A stretch of DNA of 64,000 nucleotides, taken from NCBI GenBank assembly GCA_019118935.1, contig DWXY01000023.1:11356-75355 (forward strand). The letters run 5' to 3'. This DNA is from Candidatus Oscillibacter pullicola. GTDB taxonomy: Bacteria; Bacillota; Clostridia; Oscillospirales; Oscillospiraceae. This document shows, piece by piece, positions 8,221 through 40,620 of the stretch. The translations under genes and the position numbers were made by a program. The notes under the pieces were generated by a model that saw only the letters and a program-made list of their open reading frames with translations, did not search any database and was not told the origin of the DNA. Positions within the stretch are counted from its first letter, which is position 1, and every line of letters begins with the position of its first letter.

Positions 8221-8254
8221 AAACAAGCGGAGCGGGTGCTTTCGCACCCGCTCC
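8221..8254 (-). terminator. Intrinsic terminator of rpsB-tsf
   Basis: GGAGCGGGTGC-TTTC-GCACCCGCTCC perfect stem just after the tsf stop. Confidence 0.7.
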
Positions 8255-8274
8255 TGATTCAGCCGGCTTAATAA

Positions 8275-9192
8275 TCAGCCCTTCACCATGGAGGCGATCT
8301 CCTCAGCGAAGTTCTCCTGCTTCTTCTCGATGCCCTCGCCCTTCTCAAAGCGGATGGCGTCCTTGAAGGTCACCTTTCCGCCTGCGGCCTTGGCGGCGGA
8401 GGCGATATACTGCTCCACGCTCATGGAGTTGTCCTTCACGAACTCCTGCTGCAGCAGGCAGTTCTCGGAGTAGAACTTGTTCAGCTTGCCCATGACGATC
8501 TTCTCCCGCACGGCCTCGGGCTTGGAGGCCATCTTGGGATCGTTCTCCATCTGGACCATCATGATCTTCTTCTCCTCGTCCAGAACGTCCTGGCCCACCT
8601 GGGACTTGTCCCAGAAGCGGGGGTTCAGAGCGGCAATCTGCATGGCCACGTCCTTGCCGATCTCCTCCACCTTCTCGGCGGGCAGGTCGGACTCCAGGTT
8701 CACCAGCACGCCGATCTTGCCGCCGGCGTGCACATAGGGCACGGAGACGTTCTCGGCGAAGCGGGCGAAGCGGCGGATCTTGATGTTCTCGCCGATCACC
8801 AGCACCATCTCCTGCTGCTGCTGGGTGACGGTCAGGTCGGTGCCGGCGTACTTGCACTCCATCAGCGCATCCAGGTCAGCGGGAGCCTCCTTGGCCACAG
8901 TAGCGGCCACGCCCTTGACGAAGTCCACGAACTTCTCGTTCTTGCCCACGAAGTCGGTCTCGGCGTTGACCTCGACCACCACGCCCACGCCGTCGATAAC
9001 GGCGGCATAGGCCATGCCCTCGGCGGCAATGCGGCCGGCCTTCTTGGCGGAGGCGGCCATGCCCTTCTCGCGCAGCCACTCCACGGCCTTGTCCATATCG
9101 CCGTCGGAGGCGGTCAGCGCCTTCTTGCAATCCATCATGCCCACGCCGGTCATCTCGCGCAGGTTCTTTACATCAGCTGCGGTAAAAGCCAT
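8275..9192 (-). CDS. tsf: Elongation factor Ts
   Basis: VKNLREMTGVGMMDCKKAL, EVNAETDFV; GGAGG RBS before MAFT. Confidence 0.97.
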   Translation of the reverse strand: MAFTAADVKNLREMTGVGMMDCKKALTASDGDMDKAVEWLREKGMAASAKKAGRIAAEGMAYAAVIDGVGVVVEVNAETDFVGKNEKFVDFVKGVAATVAKEAPADLDALMECKYAGTDLTVTQQQQEMVLVIGENIKIRRFARFAENVSVPYVHAGGKIGVLVNLESDLPAEKVEEIGKDVAMQIAALNPRFWDKSQVGQDVLDEEKKIMMVQMENDPKMASKPEAVREKIVMGKLNKFYSENCLLQQEFVKDNSMSVEQYIASAAKAAGGKVTFKDAIRFEKGEGIEKKQENFAEEIASMVKG

Positions 9193-13433: not shown

Positions 13434-15065
13434 TTACGTCTCTGAGGCTTCTGTCGTCTCCATCGGTGAGATCCCGGTAAAGAAGTTCCCGCCATCCGAC
13501 AAAGTGAACGTCTCGGACAGGTCCGCGGCGCTCTGGCCGGCTTCTCCGCCGCCGGGGCCGCGGCCGCCTGCGGGCGGTTCCGCGCCGTCAGGTGTGGTCT
13601 CCCCATCCGCCGGGCGCTCCGGGTGGTCCGCCGGGGCCTCTCCGCCAGCGTTCTCCGGCGCCTCGCCCTCCGGGCGCTGGGGGCGCTCTCCCTCCGGAGG
13701 CATCCCGCCCTCCGGCGCCTGCCGGGGATCGAAGTCCGCGGGGGGCTCCCCACCGTCCATGGGCCGTCCGCCGCCGGGGCCGCCCATGCCGTCGGACGCG
13801 CTGCCGGCCAGCTGGGTGTCTCCCTGCCACAGGGTGTAGTCCCCTGCCGTCAGGTCCGGGGAGGACACCACCAGGCAGGTGAAGTCGTTTACCGGCGTCC
13901 AGGTGCCCACGGTCTCCCCGTCGGCGTTTTGCAGGGTATAGGTCTGGCCGCCGCTCTGCCGGGATGCGAAGGAGAACACCACATAGTTCTGGGCCCCGCC
14001 GTCGATTTGGTCATACATATTGCCGGAGGCCGTTACCGTGCCGCCGTTGATGGTGATGCCCATGGTGGCGTCGATGCCCGCGTCCCCGCTGCCGGAGCAG
14101 GCCGCGGCGGTGACAGCGCCGCCGTTGATCACCAGCCAGCCGTTGGAGTCGATGCCGTCGCCTTCGCCGGTCTCGCCGGTGACCTGGATGTTCACGGAGC
14201 CGCCGTTGACGGTGGTGACGGATACGTTGTCCTCATTGGTGTTGATGCCGTCATTGCCGGAGGTGATGTTGATGGTGCCGCCGTTGATGGTGAGGTGCAG
14301 CTCCGTGTCCAGCCCCTCGTTGTCGGCGGTGATGTTCAGCACACCGGTGCCGGCCTCTCCCCCGTCCACATTCATGGACATCTTAGAGTAGAAGGCGCCG
14401 TCGTATTTGTGGAGCTTGTCGCTGTCCTCCACGGTTGTGCCGTCCTCGCTGAGCACCACGCTGTCCGGGTCGTAGATCCGGGCCACATAGGAGCCGGTGA
14501 CGTTGTTGATGGTGCCGTCGGCGATGAGGACATTGGCACCGGCGGCGGAGGTGTCCACGGTCTCCGAGGCGGTGTCCTCGTCCGCGCTGCCGCACTCATA
14601 GACGTTGTAGAAAATCACCGCCGGGGCCACGGTACAGGTGATGTCCACGCCGTTCAGGATCAGCGTCACCACCGCCGCCGGGTCCTCCTCCGCATCCTCC
14701 CCCAGGTCCACGGCGATCTGCCCTGCGGACAGGGTGCCGCTGAGGGCGTAGGTGCCGGGTTGTGTGATGTGGACCACCGTGTGGGCCTCCGCCTCTTCGG
14801 CGGTGTGCTCGTCGGCTTCCGTGCCCTCGCCGTAGGTGAAGTCGCGGCCGGATTCATAGCAGACAATGTCATGGGCCGTGTAGACGGCGGCCGTCTCGTC
14901 CGCGGAGACCGCCTCCCCGTCCACAGTAATGCCGTCGTCCGAGAGGACGATGGAAACAGTATCCGGGAATTCCTGCGCGGCCGTCTCGCGGCCCTGCGCG
15001 CCGCAGCCGGAGAGTGCGGCCGCAGCCACCGCCAGCCCCAGGAAGAGAGAAGCAATTCGTTTCAT
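13434..15065 (-). CDS. Carbohydrate-binding domain lipoprotein (DUF4353/Cthe_2159-like beta-helix)
   Basis: Lipobox LSGC, ITQPGTYALSG, repeated ITINGG/GDGIDSNG strands, G/P/E-rich C-terminal tail. Confidence 0.75.
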   Translation of the reverse strand: MKRIASLFLGLAVAAAALSGCGAQGRETAAQEFPDTVSIVLSDDGITVDGEAVSADETAAVYTAHDIVCYESGRDFTYGEGTEADEHTAEEAEAHTVVHITQPGTYALSGTLSAGQIAVDLGEDAEEDPAAVVTLILNGVDITCTVAPAVIFYNVYECGSADEDTASETVDTSAAGANVLIADGTINNVTGSYVARIYDPDSVVLSEDGTTVEDSDKLHKYDGAFYSKMSMNVDGGEAGTGVLNITADNEGLDTELHLTINGGTINITSGNDGINTNEDNVSVTTVNGGSVNIQVTGETGEGDGIDSNGWLVINGGAVTAAACSGSGDAGIDATMGITINGGTVTASGNMYDQIDGGAQNYVVFSFASRQSGGQTYTLQNADGETVGTWTPVNDFTCLVVSSPDLTAGDYTLWQGDTQLAGSASDGMGGPGGGRPMDGGEPPADFDPRQAPEGGMPPEGERPQRPEGEAPENAGGEAPADHPERPADGETTPDGAEPPAGGRGPGGGEAGQSAADLSETFTLSDGGNFFTGISPMETTEASET

Positions 15066-25673: not shown

Positions 25674-25752
25674 GCATCAGCCCGGAGGCCACGTCATGTC
25701 TCTGCCGCTCAGTACGTGGAAGTGCAGGTGAAATACGCTCTGCCCCGCCTGC
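25674..25752 (-). repeat. Duplicated 3' end of the HIT gene (direct repeat of 25893-25971)
   Basis: 79 bp, 78/79 identical; encodes [24 protein letters not shown] without a start. Confidence 0.95.
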
Positions 25753-25892
25753 ATTCCCCACCGGGCCGAGCCCGGCGGGGACCCCGGATAAAACTTGAGC
25801 GGGCAGGCATAGCCCGCCCGCTCCAAGGTTTTGCTTCGCAAAACGCTTGCACGCGCGCTCGCGCGCGGCCCCGCTGGGGCCGTGGCTCCCAG
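25753..25892 (-). mobile_element. Short multi-hairpin non-coding element E1 (putative non-autonomous mobile element)
   Basis: Several hairpins; homologous to 37710-37865; lies between 79-bp direct repeats; mobility is inferred. Confidence 0.65.
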
Positions 25893-25895
25893 GCA

Positions 25896-26234
25896 TCAGC
25901 CCGGAGGCCACGTCATGTCTCTGCCGCTCAGTACGTGGAAGTGCAGGTGAAATACGCTCTGTCCCGCCTGCTCGCCGATGTTGGAGACCACCCGGTAGCT
26001 GTCCAGGCCCTTTTCCTTTGTCAGCTTGGCAATGACCTCAAAGATGTGAGCCACCACCATGCTGTTGTCCGCGGTGATCTCGGACACAGAGCCGATATGG
26101 GCCTTGGGCACCACCAGAAAGTGGGTGGGCGCCTGTGGATCAATGTCATTGAAGGCGTAGCACACGTCGTCCTCGTAGACCTTGCTGCTGGGAATCTCCC
26201 CGGCGATGATCTTGCAGAATAGGCAATCGGACAT
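25896..26234 (-). CDS. hinT: Histidine triad nucleotide-binding protein (HIT family)
   Basis: DCLFCKII, DIDPQAPTHFLVVPK, HLHFH triad; AAAGGAGG RBS. Confidence 0.95.
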   Translation of the reverse strand: MSDCLFCKIIAGEIPSSKVYEDDVCYAFNDIDPQAPTHFLVVPKAHIGSVSEITADNSMVVAHIFEVIAKLTKEKGLDSYRVVSNIGEQAGQSVFHLHFHVLSGRDMTWPPG

Positions 26235-27472: not shown

Positions 27473-27524
27473 AATTTTTCTCCTTTCGGGGCGGGTCTCC
27501 CCGCAGGGGGCTGTTCCCACGGGG

Positions 27525-27676
27525 TGCGCCCCCATTCTCTTTTTGGTTGCGCCAAAAAGAGAATGCGCCGCGCCCGGAGGAAGAGAAAAAGCGCTTTGGC
27601 GCGCTCCGGTGCAGTGGCCCTCCGCGCGACGGGGGTCGGCGGATCGGTGCCTGCTCCGATTTTGCCTGGCCTTCGG
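27525..27676 (+). repeat. Palindromic interspersed repeat copy E3
   Basis: Hairpin CATTCTCTTTTTGG-TTGCG-CCAAAAAGAGAATG plus blocks shared with the reverse complement of 28021-28178. Confidence 0.8.
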
Positions 27677-36763: not shown

Positions 36764-37576
36764 TCACTTGATATGGGCGCCGAGGCTGGCAAACAGGTCC
36801 AGCAGGGGCTCCCACAGGTCCGGGTGGTGCTCCAGCAGGAAGGATCGGACCTCCGGGGCCGACAGGCCGTCCCCCCACAGCAGCACGTGGCTGCCGGAGG
36901 CGAACTCTCCCACGGCAGTGGGCGCCACGGCGGAGACCGCCACGGCGATTTTCGCAGCGATGGCCGCCACGCCGCCGGTGTAGACCCCCACGGCGCTGAC
37001 GCCCAGGGCCAGATACCCCAGGGCCGCCACGCCGAAGGCCCCCAGTCCGGCGGCCACGATACCCAGGGACAGCAGGCCCATGCCCACCACGCCGAAGGTG
37101 AACAGGCCCACTCCCACAATACCGATGGCCACTACGCCCACGGCGGCGTTGCCGATGGCGATGATGCCCCTGGCAACATTGTCTTTGGAGAAGGTCGCGT
37201 TCCGGACGAAGCCGAACCGGATAGACACCAGGGGCAGGCCGAAGATCCGGGTCTTGCTGTCATAGCGGTAGACTTTGCCCTTCACGTAGCGGGTCAGCTC
37301 GTCCACCTTTTTCTCCAGCCGGTCCGCCTGCCGGGCGGACAGATCGTCTCCCCCACGCTCCGCTTCCTCCGGCGAATCCAGCCGGTCCTTTACCAGATAG
37401 TCCACCGACACATCAAACAATTCTGACAAGGAGATCAGCTTCACAAGCTCTGGCATGGCTGTTCCGGACTCCCATTTACTGACGGACTGGCGGGTGACCC
37501 CCAGCCGGTCCGCCAGCTGCTCCTGGCTCATGCCGGACTTGCGGCGGAGGTCCGTCAGCTTCTCGGAAAATGTCAT
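36764..37576 (-). CDS. XRE-family HTH regulator with a Gly-rich membrane domain
   Basis: FSEKLTDLRRKSGMSQEQLA...TRQSVSKWESG; RIFGLPLVSI...ARGIIAIG Gly/Ala-rich TM repeats. Confidence 0.85.
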   Translation of the reverse strand: MTFSEKLTDLRRKSGMSQEQLADRLGVTRQSVSKWESGTAMPELVKLISLSELFDVSVDYLVKDRLDSPEEAERGGDDLSARQADRLEKKVDELTRYVKGKVYRYDSKTRIFGLPLVSIRFGFVRNATFSKDNVARGIIAIGNAAVGVVAIGIVGVGLFTFGVVGMGLLSLGIVAAGLGAFGVAALGYLALGVSAVGVYTGGVAAIAAKIAVAVSAVAPTAVGEFASGSHVLLWGDGLSAPEVRSFLLEHHPDLWEPLLDLFASLGAHIK

Positions 37577-37657
37577 CTGCAAAACACTCGCTTTCTCGTT
37601 TGGATGGCCCCATGATAAGCCACCCACCGCGCACCTGACAAGAACGCGGTGGGTGGA

Positions 37658-37709
37658 ACTTTGTCAACCGGAGGTTGCACCCATTGAGGCGCAATGGATT
37701 GACGGTTTT
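37658..37709 (+). repeat. Direct repeat A (pairs with 37866-37917)
   Basis: ACTTTGYCAACCGGAGGTTGCACCCATTGAGGCGCAATGGAT core 41/42 identical, 48/52 when extended. Confidence 0.9.
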
Positions 37710-37865
37710 GGAAGCCCTTCCCCGGCGGGCCAGCGGTCCGCCCGCCGCTTTTGCGGCGTACAAGTGTTTTGCCGCTGGCGGCGAAACCTTGAGGAGGCCG
37801 GGCTTTGCCTGGCCGACTAAAATCAAATCCGGGGTCCCCGCCGCGCCATCTTGGCGCGGCGGGGC
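37710..37865 (+). mobile_element. Short multi-hairpin non-coding element E2 (same family as E1)
   Basis: Shares GG(G/A)AGCC, GT(G/A)CAAG(C/T)GTTTTGC, AAACCTTG, CGGGCT(A/T)TGCCTG and ATCCGGGGTCCCCGCCG...GGGG with E1; flanked by direct repeats; mobility is inferred. Confidence 0.65.
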
Positions 37866-37922
37866 ACTTTGCCAACCGGAGGTTGCACCCATTGAGGCGC
37901 AATGGATCGGCAGTTTTAGCCT

Positions 37923-38933
37923 TTACCAGATCCCCAGCAGGTGCTGGACTCCCAGGCTGACCAGGGCGATGGCCACCCAGCAGCAGAAGCCCATAAAGAT
38001 GGGCTTGGCACCGCTTTTTACCAGCTTCACGATGTCGGTGTTCAGGCCGATGGCCGCCATGGCCATGACGATGAAGAACTTGCTGGCGTTTTTCAAGAAG
38101 CCCGTGACCGCTCCGGGAATAGGCAGCACCGTGGTGATGATGGAGGCAATCAAAAACAGCAGCACGAACCAGGGGAAGATCTTCTTGATGTCCACCTGTG
38201 CGCCGCCCTGCTTCCCCTCCCGGCGGGTCCGCAGCAGGGCCAGCACCAGGGTGATGGGGATGATGGCCAGGGTCCGGGTCATCTTCACGATGGCGGCAGT
38301 GTCCAGGGTGTTGGCGCCGGGGTGCATCCCGTCCCAGGCGGCAGCCGCCGCGGTGACGGAGGAGGTGTCGTTCACCGCGGTGCCGGCAAAGAGGCCGAAG
38401 CCCTCGTTGGAGAGGCCCAGCACACCTCCCAGGGTGGGGAAGATCAGCGCCGCGATGACGTTGAACAGGAAGATCACAGAGATGGCCTGGGCGATCTCCT
38501 CGTCATCCGCGCCGATCACCGGGGCGGTAGCGGCGATGGCGCTGCCGCCGCAGATAGAGGAGCCCACGCCGATGAGGGTGGAGATGTTGGCGTCCATGCG
38601 CAGGGCCTTGTAGAGCACAAAGGCCACGATCAGGCTGGTGGCGATGGTGGAGACGATGATGGGCAGGGACTGCCCGCCCACCTGGAGGACGCTGCCCAAG
38701 TTCATGCCGAAGCCCAGCAGCACCACCGCCAGCTGCAAAATCTTCTTGGAGGTGTAGGTGATGCCGGACTTGGCTGCCTTCTGGTCTTTCCAGAACAGGG
38801 CGATCACCATGCCGATCAGGATGGCGAACACCGGGCCGCCCACCACCTCGAACCGCTGCCCCAGCAGCCAGGCGGGCACGGCGATCACCAGACAGATCAG
38901 GATGCCCAGGGCGTTTTTTCTGACAAATTCCAT
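37923..38933 (-). CDS. YeiH family putative sulfate exporter membrane protein
   Basis: [33 protein letters not shown]. Confidence 0.9.
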
Positions 38934-39041: not shown

Positions 39042-40133
39042 TTAGAAAAGGGGAATCTCTGTGCCTCCCCACAGCAGGTACGACACCTGGGCCAGGTCCA
39101 GCGGTATCCAAAAGGTGCCGGAGCAGACCTGGAGTCCATCTTCCTCCCCGGAGAAACTGTCGTTGACTGACACCTCTGTGCCGTCCCGCAGCACCGCTGA
39201 CAGCGGTGCGCCTGGAGTGATCGTCACCTCCATAGCGGTGGTATCTCCATCCTCGTCCACGCCTACAACGGCAGGCGGCTCCTCCCAGGCCGCCTGCTCC
39301 TCCTCACGGGCGGCCTGGGCGGTATCAGGGGGAATCCGGTAGCTCCACCGAGCCCCCAGTGGGGACAGTTCCAGAGTTTCCAGGACGACAGAGCCCCAGG
39401 GAGTCTCCGTGGTGACGCCCGCAACATCCAGGGTCATCACGCTCTCCTCCCCCATGCCCTCCGAGATCGGGAAGGTAAACTCTCCGGTAAAGAGCGGCGT
39501 GTAGGTACCATCCGTTGCCCACATCCAGAGGCCCGGAATGTGAACCGTCAGACCGGTCAGATCTCCGTCAGCCAATACCTCCACCACTACGGTGATTTTG
39601 TTGTCTGTGGGATCACTGTCCTCCAGGCAGGTCAAATCTAGGGAGTAGGTTAAATTCTCCACACGCCGCCCCTCCGCTGTTTCCAGGCACGCCCAATTTT
39701 TCGGATCGTCAAAACTGGATAAACTGTACAGCCAGTCCTCTCCCTGGGTTGGCAGGACGGTCCCCTCCGGGGCCTCCACCTCCAGCATCAGGTAGAACAC
39801 GCCATCTGTGCCGAAGGCGGCCTGGGGCGTCATCACAGCGCCATTGGAGGAGACCGCCCCCGGCAGATCGCCGCTGAGGGTGTCCACCACCGCCTGCTCC
39901 GCCGGGTCCAGCCCGCCGAAGTAGCGGTCCCACAGAGAGGCTGTGACAGCCGCCGCCGTGCCCACCAGCAGCACTGCCGCCAGCACCGCTGCCGTCCCCC
40001 GTTTCATCCAGAAGCTCCGGCGCCGGACCGCCGGTCCGGCCTGCTCCGCCATCAGGGCGTCCGTCAGGGCGGACTTCCCCGCTTCCGTGAACTGTACCCG
40101 GTCCAACTCACTCTGATAAGCATTCCTGTCCAT
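39042..40133 (-). CDS. Anti-sigma factor, DUF4179-like
   Basis: Short cytoplasmic N-terminus, single TM (AAVLAAVLLVGTAAAV), acidic extracellular domain; overlaps the ECF sigma stop. Confidence 0.75.
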   Translation of the reverse strand: MDRNAYQSELDRVQFTEAGKSALTDALMAEQAGPAVRRRSFWMKRGTAAVLAAVLLVGTAAAVTASLWDRYFGGLDPAEQAVVDTLSGDLPGAVSSNGAVMTPQAAFGTDGVFYLMLEVEAPEGTVLPTQGEDWLYSLSSFDDPKNWACLETAEGRRVENLTYSLDLTCLEDSDPTDNKITVVVEVLADGDLTGLTVHIPGLWMWATDGTYTPLFTGEFTFPISEGMGEESVMTLDVAGVTTETPWGSVVLETLELSPLGARWSYRIPPDTAQAAREEEQAAWEEPPAVVGVDEDGDTTAMEVTITPGAPLSAVLRDGTEVSVNDSFSGEEDGLQVCSGTFWIPLDLAQVSYLLWGGTEIPLF

Positions 40134-40620
40134 AAGCGCCTCCCAGCATGTTCCGCAATTTTGCCTTACCCCGGTAGAGATACGTGCTGACCTGGCTGGC
40201 CGTGCAGCCCATCAGCGCCCCGATCTCCGCTGGCTCATATCCTTCGTAATACCGCAGGTACACCGCCTGCCGGTACTTCTCCGGCAGGGCCTGCACCGCC
40301 GCCAGCACGGGGCTCTCCCCCGGCTCCGGCAGGTGGACCGCCGCGCGGGCCGCCGCCTCCAACGGCAGGCGCCGCCGGACCCAGGCGGATTTCTTCCAGT
40401 CCTTGCAGCAGTTGACGGCCACCCGGACCACCCAGGCCCGCTCCAGCCGCTCCTCCGCAAAGCGGCGGGGACTGGTCAGCAGCTTCAAAAGCACCGTCTG
40501 ACAGATGTCCTGGGCGTCGTGGACGCTGCCCGTCCAGGTCCAGGCGATCCTCAGCACGGTGTCCGACCACTGCTCTACCAGCTTCTCCGCCTCCTGGCGG
40601 GTATATGTGATTGCTTCCGT
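40108..40620 (-). CDS. ECF RNA polymerase sigma factor (start codon atypical, see findings)
   Basis: DAQDICQTVLLKL, AWVVRVAVNCCKD, LPEKYRQAVYLRYYEGY...EIGALMG. Confidence 0.85.
   Translation of the reverse strand, partial: TEAITYTRQEAEKLVEQWSDTVLRIAWTWTGSVHDAQDICQTVLLKLLTSPRRFAEERLERAWVVRVAVNCCKDWKKSAWVRRRLPLEAAARAAVHLPEPGESPVLAAVQALPEKYRQAVYLRYYEGYEPAEIGALMGCTASQVSTYLYRGKAKLRNMLGGAYGQECLSE

Follow-up and report, generated by a model that had tools for sequence, protein, structure and literature searches.

The REP/BIME, REPIN, BOX, RUP and Correia repeats of bacteria are short, GC-rich, hairpin-forming and non-coding sequences that lie between genes and are co-transcribed with their neighbours. 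The integrative elements of gene and transfer RNA (tRNA) 3' ends are bounded by a repeat that runs from inside the gene to its end; the gene stays intact, copies occur in tandem, and loss is precise. Long and variable target duplications are known from the insertion sequences IS1634 and IS1549, and no model has been proposed for them (PMC2266710). Casposons occupy the 3' end of genes for aEF-2 or tRNAs, beside a palindromic target feature, and their tandem copies are separated only by the duplication (PMC9939771). Here, we describe E, a family of GC-rich, hairpin-rich non-coding elements of 120–170 nucleotides (nt), through its copy E2 in a 64,000-nt stretch of Candidatus Oscillibacter pullicola (assembly GCA_019118935.1, contig DWXY01000023.1, positions 11,356–75,355 of the forward strand). 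This whole stretch is referred to as the window, and its positions serve as coordinates. E2 lies between a yeiH-like gene and the gene of an XRE-type regulator. It is flanked by a 52-nt direct repeat that sequence comparison with related loci identifies as a target duplication accompanying the inserted element. The family appears to be undescribed: its conserved motif GGGGACCCCGGAT was not found in the literature searched, and searches for MITEs (miniature inverted-repeat transposable elements) or long duplications in Clostridia turned up nothing that matches E.

An insertion between the yeiH-like and XRE genes

Both genes flanking E2 are on the minus strand and are separated by a spacer of 346 nt, in which the stop codon of the yeiH-like gene stands 5 nt upstream of the outer repeat copy. 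The locus is composed as follows:

37923–38933, minus strand: yeiH-like membrane protein gene, 336 amino acids (aa), PF03601, from the list of open reading frames (ORFs) and from Pfam on the identical gene in L001
37866–37917, minus strand: outer copy (U) of the repeat, called copy B, lying upstream of E2 in element orientation
37710–37865, minus strand: element E2, 156 nt, delimited by a covariance-model match, hairpins and alignment with its sister copy E1
37658–37709, minus strand: inner copy (D) of the repeat, called copy A, which borders directly on the native XRE promoter
36764–37576, minus strand: 270-aa helix-turn-helix regulator of XRE type (HTH_3/HTH_19/HTH_31), whose C-terminal part is a membrane region

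The initial annotation of the window had reported direct repeats at 37658–37709 and 37866–37917, and the pair is real. Its copies match at 48 of 52 positions and at 41 of the first 42, the mismatches being T/C, C/T, G/A and G/A. An exact 35-nt core (37665–37699 and 37873–37907) is present twice in the window against none expected in 100 shuffles. A repeat search extends the pair to 64 nt at 86% identity (37646–37709 and 37854–37917, spacing 208). The two palindromes that had been placed inside the duplicated segment are present in each copy:

37665–37677 and 37873–37885: palindrome CAACC-TCC-GGTTG
37681–37697 and 37889–37905: palindrome CCATTG-CGCCT-CAATGG

A chance tandem duplication or a mis-assembly unrelated to the element would be one way to obtain such a pair. 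Repeats can confuse short-read assemblers, and Logan unitigs do break at the 35-nt core. This explanation is nevertheless extremely improbable. Six independently assembled ENA contigs from different samples carry an identical 346-nt spacer, on which ground an assembly artefact, a concern of the initial annotation, was rejected. Both junctions are also covered by Logan unitigs from many chicken-gut runs, no chance match of the core is expected, and flanking repeats accompany 36 of 38 family members against 1.8% of controls, as detailed below.

The state before insertion can be read from orthologous yeiH–XRE loci of other species, of which 46 were searched for motifs and 12 were read directly, with 16 distinct upstream sequences aligned; the XRE proteins at these loci are 53–89% identical. 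No E motifs were found upstream of XRE orthologs in about forty related-species loci. In 27 of the 46 loci, the motif search located a single repeat-like copy, at about −122 to −130 relative to the start codon, and all 16 aligned sequences contain the conserved motif once, at the same position, which is that of copy A. The possibility that all relatives carry both repeats, which would have spoken against an insertion, is thus contradicted by orthologs that have one recognisable copy and no element. The spacer measures about 138 nt in close relatives vs 346 nt here. In L050, which has the closest spacer, the empty site reads ...AAAAAACGTCAATCCATTGCGCCTCAATGGGTGCAACCTCCGGTTGACAAAGTT/CCACCCGCCGCG... 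(also written ...GGTTGACAAAGTT/CCACCCGCCGCG...). Because the related-species loci lack the element and most have one repeat, E2 together with one repeat (208 nt) was added here. The point of insertion is the exact upstream edge of a 12-bp inverted repeat in the XRE promoter. An empty allele about 208 bp shorter had been predicted for related strains; it exists in other species, but within this species all six assemblies are filled, and the sequence of E2 is invariant among them.

A separate insertion/deletion polymorphism within the species lies upstream of the yeiH-like gene. There, a sigma-70 family gene (about 40108–40557) and a gene for a 363-aa protein (39042–40133), both on the minus strand, are present in the window and in L117 and L118. 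The pair is absent from L119–L122, which have a tyrosyl-tRNA synthetase gene directly before yeiH.

E2, E1 and the E family

Read from 5' to 3', an E element consists of hairpin H1 (CCCCAY...RTGGGG), the invariant ACCCCGGAT, hairpin H2, a bulged hairpin H3 (CAAGGTTTTGC...GCAAAACRCTTG), hairpin H4, often H5, and a variable tail. The consensus H1, H2 and H3 come from an alignment of 27 distinct copies, in which 15 of 28 predicted pairs show compensatory changes; H4 and often H5 were recognised by eye. A covariance model built from these 27 relatives detects E2 at 37741–37867 on the minus strand (87 bits, E-value 4e-21). The parts of E2 are:

37836–37864, minus strand: hairpin H1
37827–37839, minus strand: conserved motif GGGGACCCCGGAT
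37796–37814, minus strand: hairpin H2
37761–37791, minus strand: hairpin H3 (CAAGGTTT..AAAACACTTG)
37743–37758, minus strand: hairpin H4
37724–37742, minus strand: hairpin H5
37710–37723, minus strand: tail GGGGAAGGGCTTCC

The model recovers 64 copies in the scanned loci, and its only strong matches in the window are E2 and a sister copy, E1, at the 3' end of a HIT-family gene:

25674–25752, plus strand: 79-nt outer repeat that precedes E1, repeating the final 76 nt of the HIT gene together with 3 further nt
25753–25892, plus strand: element E1, 140 nt, antisense to the HIT gene
25893–25971, plus strand: inner 79-nt repeat, the true 3' end of the HIT gene
25896–26234, minus strand: HIT-family gene

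E1 is matched at 25753–25870 with 93.5 bits. It is identical to E2 in 107 of 161 aligned columns and has a similar fold; the two have in common the blocks CGGCGGGGACCCCGGAT, CAGGCAWAGCCCG, CAAGGTTT and GCAAAACRCTTGYACGC, between which stand GC-rich hairpins of differing sequence. The repeats that flank E1 are 78/79 identical and unrelated to the repeat of E2. A weak model match (20 bits, E-value 0.003) falls in the hairpin-rich intergenic stretch 27496–27581 on the plus strand, which may be a degenerate relative of E or merely GC-rich hairpins.

When one genome from each bacterial species was scanned with a two-block pattern, 45 loci were obtained, almost all of them in Oscillospiraceae; a single locus in Acidobacteriaceae was set aside as a chance match. 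E is present in more than 40 Oscillospiraceae genomes, and its hosts include Flavonifractor, Pseudoflavonifractor, Oscillibacter, Intestinimonas, Lawsonibacter, Dysosmobacter, 'Galloscillospira' and others. Among cultured organisms with a complete genome, Vescimonas fastidiosa MM35 (at about 426.6 kb of NZ_AP023416.1; L106:1296–1650) has E between infB and rbfA, with an outer repeat, an inverted junction segment, a 30-nt spacer and an inner repeat, and with no RefSeq annotation. Other cultured carriers are Lawsonibacter faecis NSJ-52, Intestinimonas aquisgranensis CLA-AA-H199, Flavonifractor sp. An306, Pseudoflavonifractor capillosus An386a and strain CCNA10. In annotated collections, E was seen in two unannotated 'Bacteriophage sp.' fragments and one Vescimonas replicon, and IMG/VR viral contigs contained no copies. 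Rfam gave no matches for the whole window at gathering thresholds; in E-value mode, the best score for E2 and L014 was 19 bits vs a threshold of 41. When the ORFs of 44 loci that encode at least 120 aa were all compared with one another, no protein family was common to different targets, and for this reason E is considered non-autonomous.

E is also found in RNA. Contigs from chicken-gut metatranscriptomes cover both E1 and E2, and in X25 the depth of E1 is roughly threefold that of the HIT coding region. The metatranscriptome contigs of X24 and X26 that match 25824–25856, at depths of 119 and 14, share the conserved H3 block only, which indicates that other family members are abundant in chicken-gut RNA. 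Logan RNA contigs are directionless, and counts of G-U vs A-C favour neither strand for the RNA of E.

Target copies at gene boundaries

Direct repeats are a property of the family at large. When the 200 nt upstream of H1 were compared with the 400 nt downstream of H3, repeats with an alignment score of at least 40 flanked 36 of 38 copies, in contrast to 1.8% of 979 random positions. They measure 36–154 nt, with a start-to-start spacing mostly of 195–270 nt. The order is the same throughout the family, namely target copy, E, target copy and gene: the outer copy ends at the foot of H1, and the inner copy runs on into the real gene. H1 always adjoins the gene-internal end of the outer copy.

For the most part, the gene is on the opposite strand, and the inner copy opens with the reverse complement of its stop codon. 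In 11 copies at 8 genes, the inner repeat starts precisely at the stop codon, and in 22 copies the stop codon falls within −10 to +3 nt of that start. The usual repeat spans from inside a housekeeping gene to its stop codon, and since it covers the gene end up to the stop, the gene stays intact. L013 (truB) and L018 are organised otherwise: E is co-oriented with the gene, and what is repeated is the ribosome-binding site or start codon followed by some 16 codons. The distinct targets known number at least 14; they include infB and tsf as well as genes located near tpiA/pgk/eno, ftsY/smc, uvrA and gap. The infB–rbfA junction is occupied across genera, in at least 6 genomes including a cultured isolate, by copies whose hairpins have diverged with compensatory substitutions. 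Repeats and elements form tandem arrays in L005, L012, L013, L036, L046 and L049. In some lineages, a spacer of 30–60 nt unrelated to the host's own downstream sequence is found left of the inner copy, and that of L022 includes a terminator. Directly upstream of the outer repeat in L040 (positions 1–13), a locus of the public metagenome-assembled genome MGYG-HGUT-02595 (contig GUT_GENOME153166_36), the sequence GCTCTTCCGATCT looks like a leftover Illumina adapter.

Inverted copies of the junction

Most elements contain a further trace of their target. In 26 of the 38 copies, the tail of E, just before the inner repeat, holds a 10–19-nt segment that is a reverse-complement copy of the target, such as GAAGGCAAAAAGAAAATG in L021 and GATGGGCCTTGAAAAGCCC in L009 (each segment p ≤ 0.005 vs shuffled tails). 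The segment typically pairs with 6–19 nt of the repeat end, usually together with 1–6 nt of gene sequence beyond the repeat, and it often begins 0–6 nt past the stop codon. E1 and E2 have no inverted junction copy. The window also contains a known target of E in the unoccupied state:

8293–9192, minus strand: tsf (EF-Ts) gene, with its 3' end (8230–8340) an unoccupied E target

The tsf site is occupied in a Flavonifractor metagenome-assembled genome (L022:2220–2470), where the inverted segment is present; the tsf 3' untranslated region of the window has no such segment. An intron-like reading, in which the inverted segment serves RNA splicing, was rejected on the opposite polarity of E in the 3'-end and 5'-end cases.

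Tentatively, and with only a modest chance of being right, E may be a nucleic-acid-guided mobile module in which the inverted junction copy acts as the guide, either as RNA or as single-stranded DNA. A separately encoded recombinase, nuclease or reverse transcriptase would then place E and a copy of the gene end at gene boundaries. Such insertion would leave the gene unbroken, and the guide-less E1 and E2 would derive from untargeted or older events.

The same segments could instead belong to a host function. E would then be a cis-acting RNA or DNA-structure module at operon junctions that stabilises the 3' end of the message or senses translation, with the inverted segment after the stop pairing with the coding or the outer copy depending on ribosome traffic. 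The position of the segment so close behind the stop codon, the abundance of E RNA in metatranscriptomes, and the occupation of the same junctions across genera with compensatory hairpin changes (infB–rbfA and others) are all in keeping with this proposal. However, E is antisense at duplicated 3' ends and co-oriented at 5' ends (L013, L018), and one RNA polarity cannot serve both. E1 is also polymorphic in presence and copy number within one species, E1 and E2 are without the segment, Rfam has no match, and the G-U vs A-C counts point to neither strand. A host module of this kind is therefore unlikely.

Gain and loss of units and upkeep of the outer copy

The flanking repeats serve as a recombination substrate, through which units are lost and amplified, as shown by the allele series of E1 among contigs that encode an identical HIT protein. 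The empty allele, in L107 and L110, has a gap of 146 nt between HIT and the next gene (...CCGGGCTGATGC/GGCCTTCGAGG...) and precisely lacks E1 and one 79-nt repeat. The gap is 365 nt in the one-unit allele, as in the window, and 584 nt in the two-unit allele of L109, whose tandem elements differ at six or more sites. L107, empty for E1, comes from the same scaffold that carries E2, and hence the two elements vary independently.

For E2, alleles were surveyed in Logan contigs from 24 DNA-type runs. The ratio of interior to flank depth is 0.47–0.5 in X3 and X17 and about 1 in X16, which suggests, though it does not prove, that about half of the population in X3 and X17 is without E2. E1 reaches full depth in X3, a result that speaks against simple coverage bias from GC content or hairpins. 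A single 5x contig in X35 joins 37664 to 37873, skipping 208 nt, and the E2 interior is equally deep in X35.

The coding repeats record how outer copies are kept. Between outer and inner copies at 13 loci there are 54 differences, of which 3, 4 and 47 fall at codon positions 1, 2 and 3, and the peptide is identical between the two copies in 11 of the 13. The mismatches are synonymous third-position changes of all kinds, evenly spread, with no crossover gradient along the repeats. Between species, too, outer copies show almost nothing but synonymous differences; each has in common with its own gene the amino-acid changes specific to its lineage, and their divergence is about that of the genes. 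A neutral orphan would be expected to outpace the gene and to accumulate changes at every codon position, and for the older copies this rules out a single duplication followed by decay. The third-position bias requires one of three things: exchange between the repeats, an element-borne copy of a functional allele, or translation of the outer copy, for which no route was seen. Frequent exchange, with selection whenever outer sequence enters the gene, fits the existence of alleles with 0, 1 and 2 units.

Possible routes of insertion

Our preferred account, which we rate at slightly better than even, is that E2 and the E family arise by insertion with target duplication, after which the repeats recombine. 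In the absence of coding capacity and of a conserved neighbouring gene, the first insertion would be carried out by a trans-acting enzyme. This enzyme would join E to one break on each strand, the two being tens of nucleotides apart, and the stretch between them would be duplicated by fill-in. Two-strand breaks at the repeat ends followed by fill-in would reproduce the structure of E1 and E2, and also that of the other copies if the inverted junction segment is the element's right end.

Several observations weigh against this account. Breaks and fill-in leave unexplained why the right end matches each target, random staggered breaks do not explain an outer repeat boundary exactly at the stop codon in 8 genes, and the inverted junction copies of 26 of 38 elements are not a product of plain staggered cutting. 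The third-position bias contradicts duplication at insertion followed by neutral decay. The initial event could have been integration of a unit that already carried a target copy, and the E elements at infB–rbfA across genera, with their diverged hairpins, could reflect a retained function instead of mobility. Finally, no insertion enzyme was found and no new insertion event was seen, nor was an assembled empty E2 allele found within the species among the six assemblies with an identical XRE protein, all of which are filled.

Some of these points are accommodated if the mobile unit is E plus one target copy, comparable to the attP site of an integrative element. Such a unit would integrate beside the homologous resident sequence and leave repeats comparable to attL and attR. 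Recombination would be site-specific or guided by the inverted junction copy, and the element-borne copy, by supplying the gene end or exchanging with it, would stay functional. This would explain why the repeat boundary lies at the stop codon, why foreign spacers are present and why the differences are synonymous. The repeat extends from within the gene as far as its end, a pattern also known from integrases directed at gene ends. Nearly all differences between the outer and inner copies are synonymous, and amino-acid changes specific to a lineage are found in both. In some lineages, foreign spacers of 30–60 nt, with a terminator in that of L022, stand to the left of the inner copy; units occur in tandem, and empty alleles are precise; and the inverted junction copy in 26 of 38 tails includes 3–6 nt beyond the repeat. 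Nonetheless, no integrase or recombinase gene is associated with E, and the at least 14 targets would each need a matching captured segment, for which no capture mechanism is known. E1 and E2, moreover, are without the inverted copy. Integration of a pre-assembled unit is thus a real possibility, though one that we consider less than probable.

Consequences for the XRE gene

Insertion with target duplication has left two further features next to copy A unchanged:

37612–37641, minus strand: promoter-like site of the XRE gene (TTGTCA, 18-nt spacer, TATCAT)
37620–37656, minus strand: 12-bp inverted repeat CCACCCACCGCG-N13-CGCGGTGGGTGG, which brackets the −35 element

The −35 (37641–37636) and −10 (37617–37612) elements match at 10 of 12 positions, against 0.1 such sites expected in shuffles, and are conserved in orthologs. 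The inverted repeat is kept in distant orthologs with compensatory changes. Both features lie downstream of copy A, unduplicated and intact. The palindrome CAACC-N3-4-GGTTGACA lies inside the duplicated part, is conserved in 16 orthologous upstream regions and may be a candidate binding site. Judged by sequence, the 12-bp inverted repeat is an equally good or better candidate for the operator.

The initial annotation had proposed that two candidate operators 208 bp apart could rewire regulation by DNA looping, or that termination of yeiH could be altered. The palindrome is indeed duplicated, its fusion to TTGACA (CAACC-N3-4-GGTTG-TTGACA, with N3 in the window) is invariant in orthologs, and E2 is fixed and sequence-invariant in the six assemblies. 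However, the upstream copy B has TTGGCA in place of TTGACA, the stronger candidate around the −35 was not duplicated, and the link between the palindrome and the XRE protein is itself a prediction. As for yeiH, no terminator-like sites were found in E2. Regulatory rewiring by either route is accordingly quite improbable. The effect of E2 on the XRE gene is probably small, since the insertion left the native promoter region untouched and contributed no more than an incomplete, mutated copy upstream.

The XRE gene also contains repeats of its own. Imperfect 45–60-nt direct repeats (60–75% identity) at 37002–37175 encode repeated membrane segments rich in small residues in the C-terminal half of the regulator. 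Elsewhere in the window, 14038–14526 is made up of imperfect coding repeats of about 78–81 nt (GTGCCGCCGTTGATGG... units) and apparently encodes a repeat-domain protein.

Comparison with known systems

If the account given here is true, E combines three properties that are not found together in any described family. The first is that its duplications, from tens of nt up to about 150 nt long, keep the ends of essential genes such as infB, tsf and truB intact; the second is a hairpin scaffold kept by compensatory change; and the third is a short inverted copy of the junction in most elements. The orphan gene-end fragments beside E would then not be decaying scraps of pseudogenes, because they stay in coding register with the gene. 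For annotation and assembly of gut Clostridia, the family represents repeats of 35–120 nt that break contigs at housekeeping genes and that vary between 0, 1 and 2 units within a species. A guide-dependent enzyme, if one exists, would be a candidate tool for insertion at gene boundaries.

The short intergenic repeats resemble E in appearance. Like the REP/BIME, REPIN, BOX, RUP and Correia sequences, E is short, GC-rich, hairpin-forming, non-coding and intergenic. Unlike E, these families have no duplication or one of a few bp, no copies of gene ends and no inverted junction copy. REP, BIME and REPIN, which go with a RAYT transposase in the genome, were rejected as a classification, since they are palindromic units of 20–40 nt, single or in inverted pairs, whereas E has 120–170 nt, four to five hairpins, conserved single-stranded motifs and long repeats.

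In the length of its duplications, E is comparable to IS1634 and IS1549: its repeats of 36–154 nt are far above the usual 2–14 bp and within the range reported for IS1634. These IS4-related elements encode a transposase and have terminal inverted repeats, whereas E has no ORF and no clear terminal inverted repeats. E also differs from them in its co-varying hairpins, its strict orientation to the target and its preference for gene boundaries. The ends of E1 and E2 (CCCCRCC... and ...GGCTYCC) are not inverted repeats, and in other copies only H1 and H5 resemble each other. No insertion sequence with E-like ends was present in 8-kb flanks. A MITE derived from a DDE insertion sequence would account for a target duplication; this classification was rejected on the missing terminal inverted repeats and on the selection for hairpins (15 of 28 pairs compensatory), which is contrary to it. 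The copies of such a MITE would be near-identical, decaying descendants of one master, whereas E1 and E2 agree in only 107 of 161 columns and still fold alike.

Guided systems offer a parallel for the tail. Like group II introns with their exon- and intron-binding sites (EBS/IBS), the omega-RNA of TnpB and the bridge RNA of IS110, E is a scaffold of about 150 nt with a 3' segment complementary to its target (26 of 38 copies). In contrast to those systems, E has no Rfam match, and neither a ribozyme nor a gene for a reverse transcriptase, TnpB or IS110 was seen nearby. Group II introns, TnpB and IS110 leave no long direct repeat, unlike E, and E1 and E2 lack the guide-like segment. A diversity-generating retroelement was excluded as well, since the mismatches show no restriction to adenine and there is no recurrent reverse transcriptase in the vicinity.

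Casposons and Cas1 spacer integration share with E the duplication of a whole target unit, and E2 also lies directly beside a palindrome. The casposon duplication is fixed at about 15 bp and is accompanied by terminal inverted repeats and genes for Cas1 and a polymerase, and CRISPR integration duplicates one repeat unit. Classification of E with casposons was rejected on its variable repeats of 36–154 nt, its lack of terminal inverted repeats and the absence of a recurrent neighbouring gene.

The integrative elements of gene ends offer a parallel in architecture. As in these elements, the repeat of E reaches the end of a gene that stays intact, copies stand in tandem, and loss is precise. They have a single att specificity, in contrast to E, which has no integrase, measures about 150 nt and occupies at least 14 targets, each with its own matching repeat. 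An integrase-mediated element was rejected for E despite the gene-end repeat, given 150 nt with no ORF, no shared neighbouring family and at least 14 targets. Set against all of these systems, E departs from each in a defining property, and we class it as a variant of the non-autonomous insertion element.

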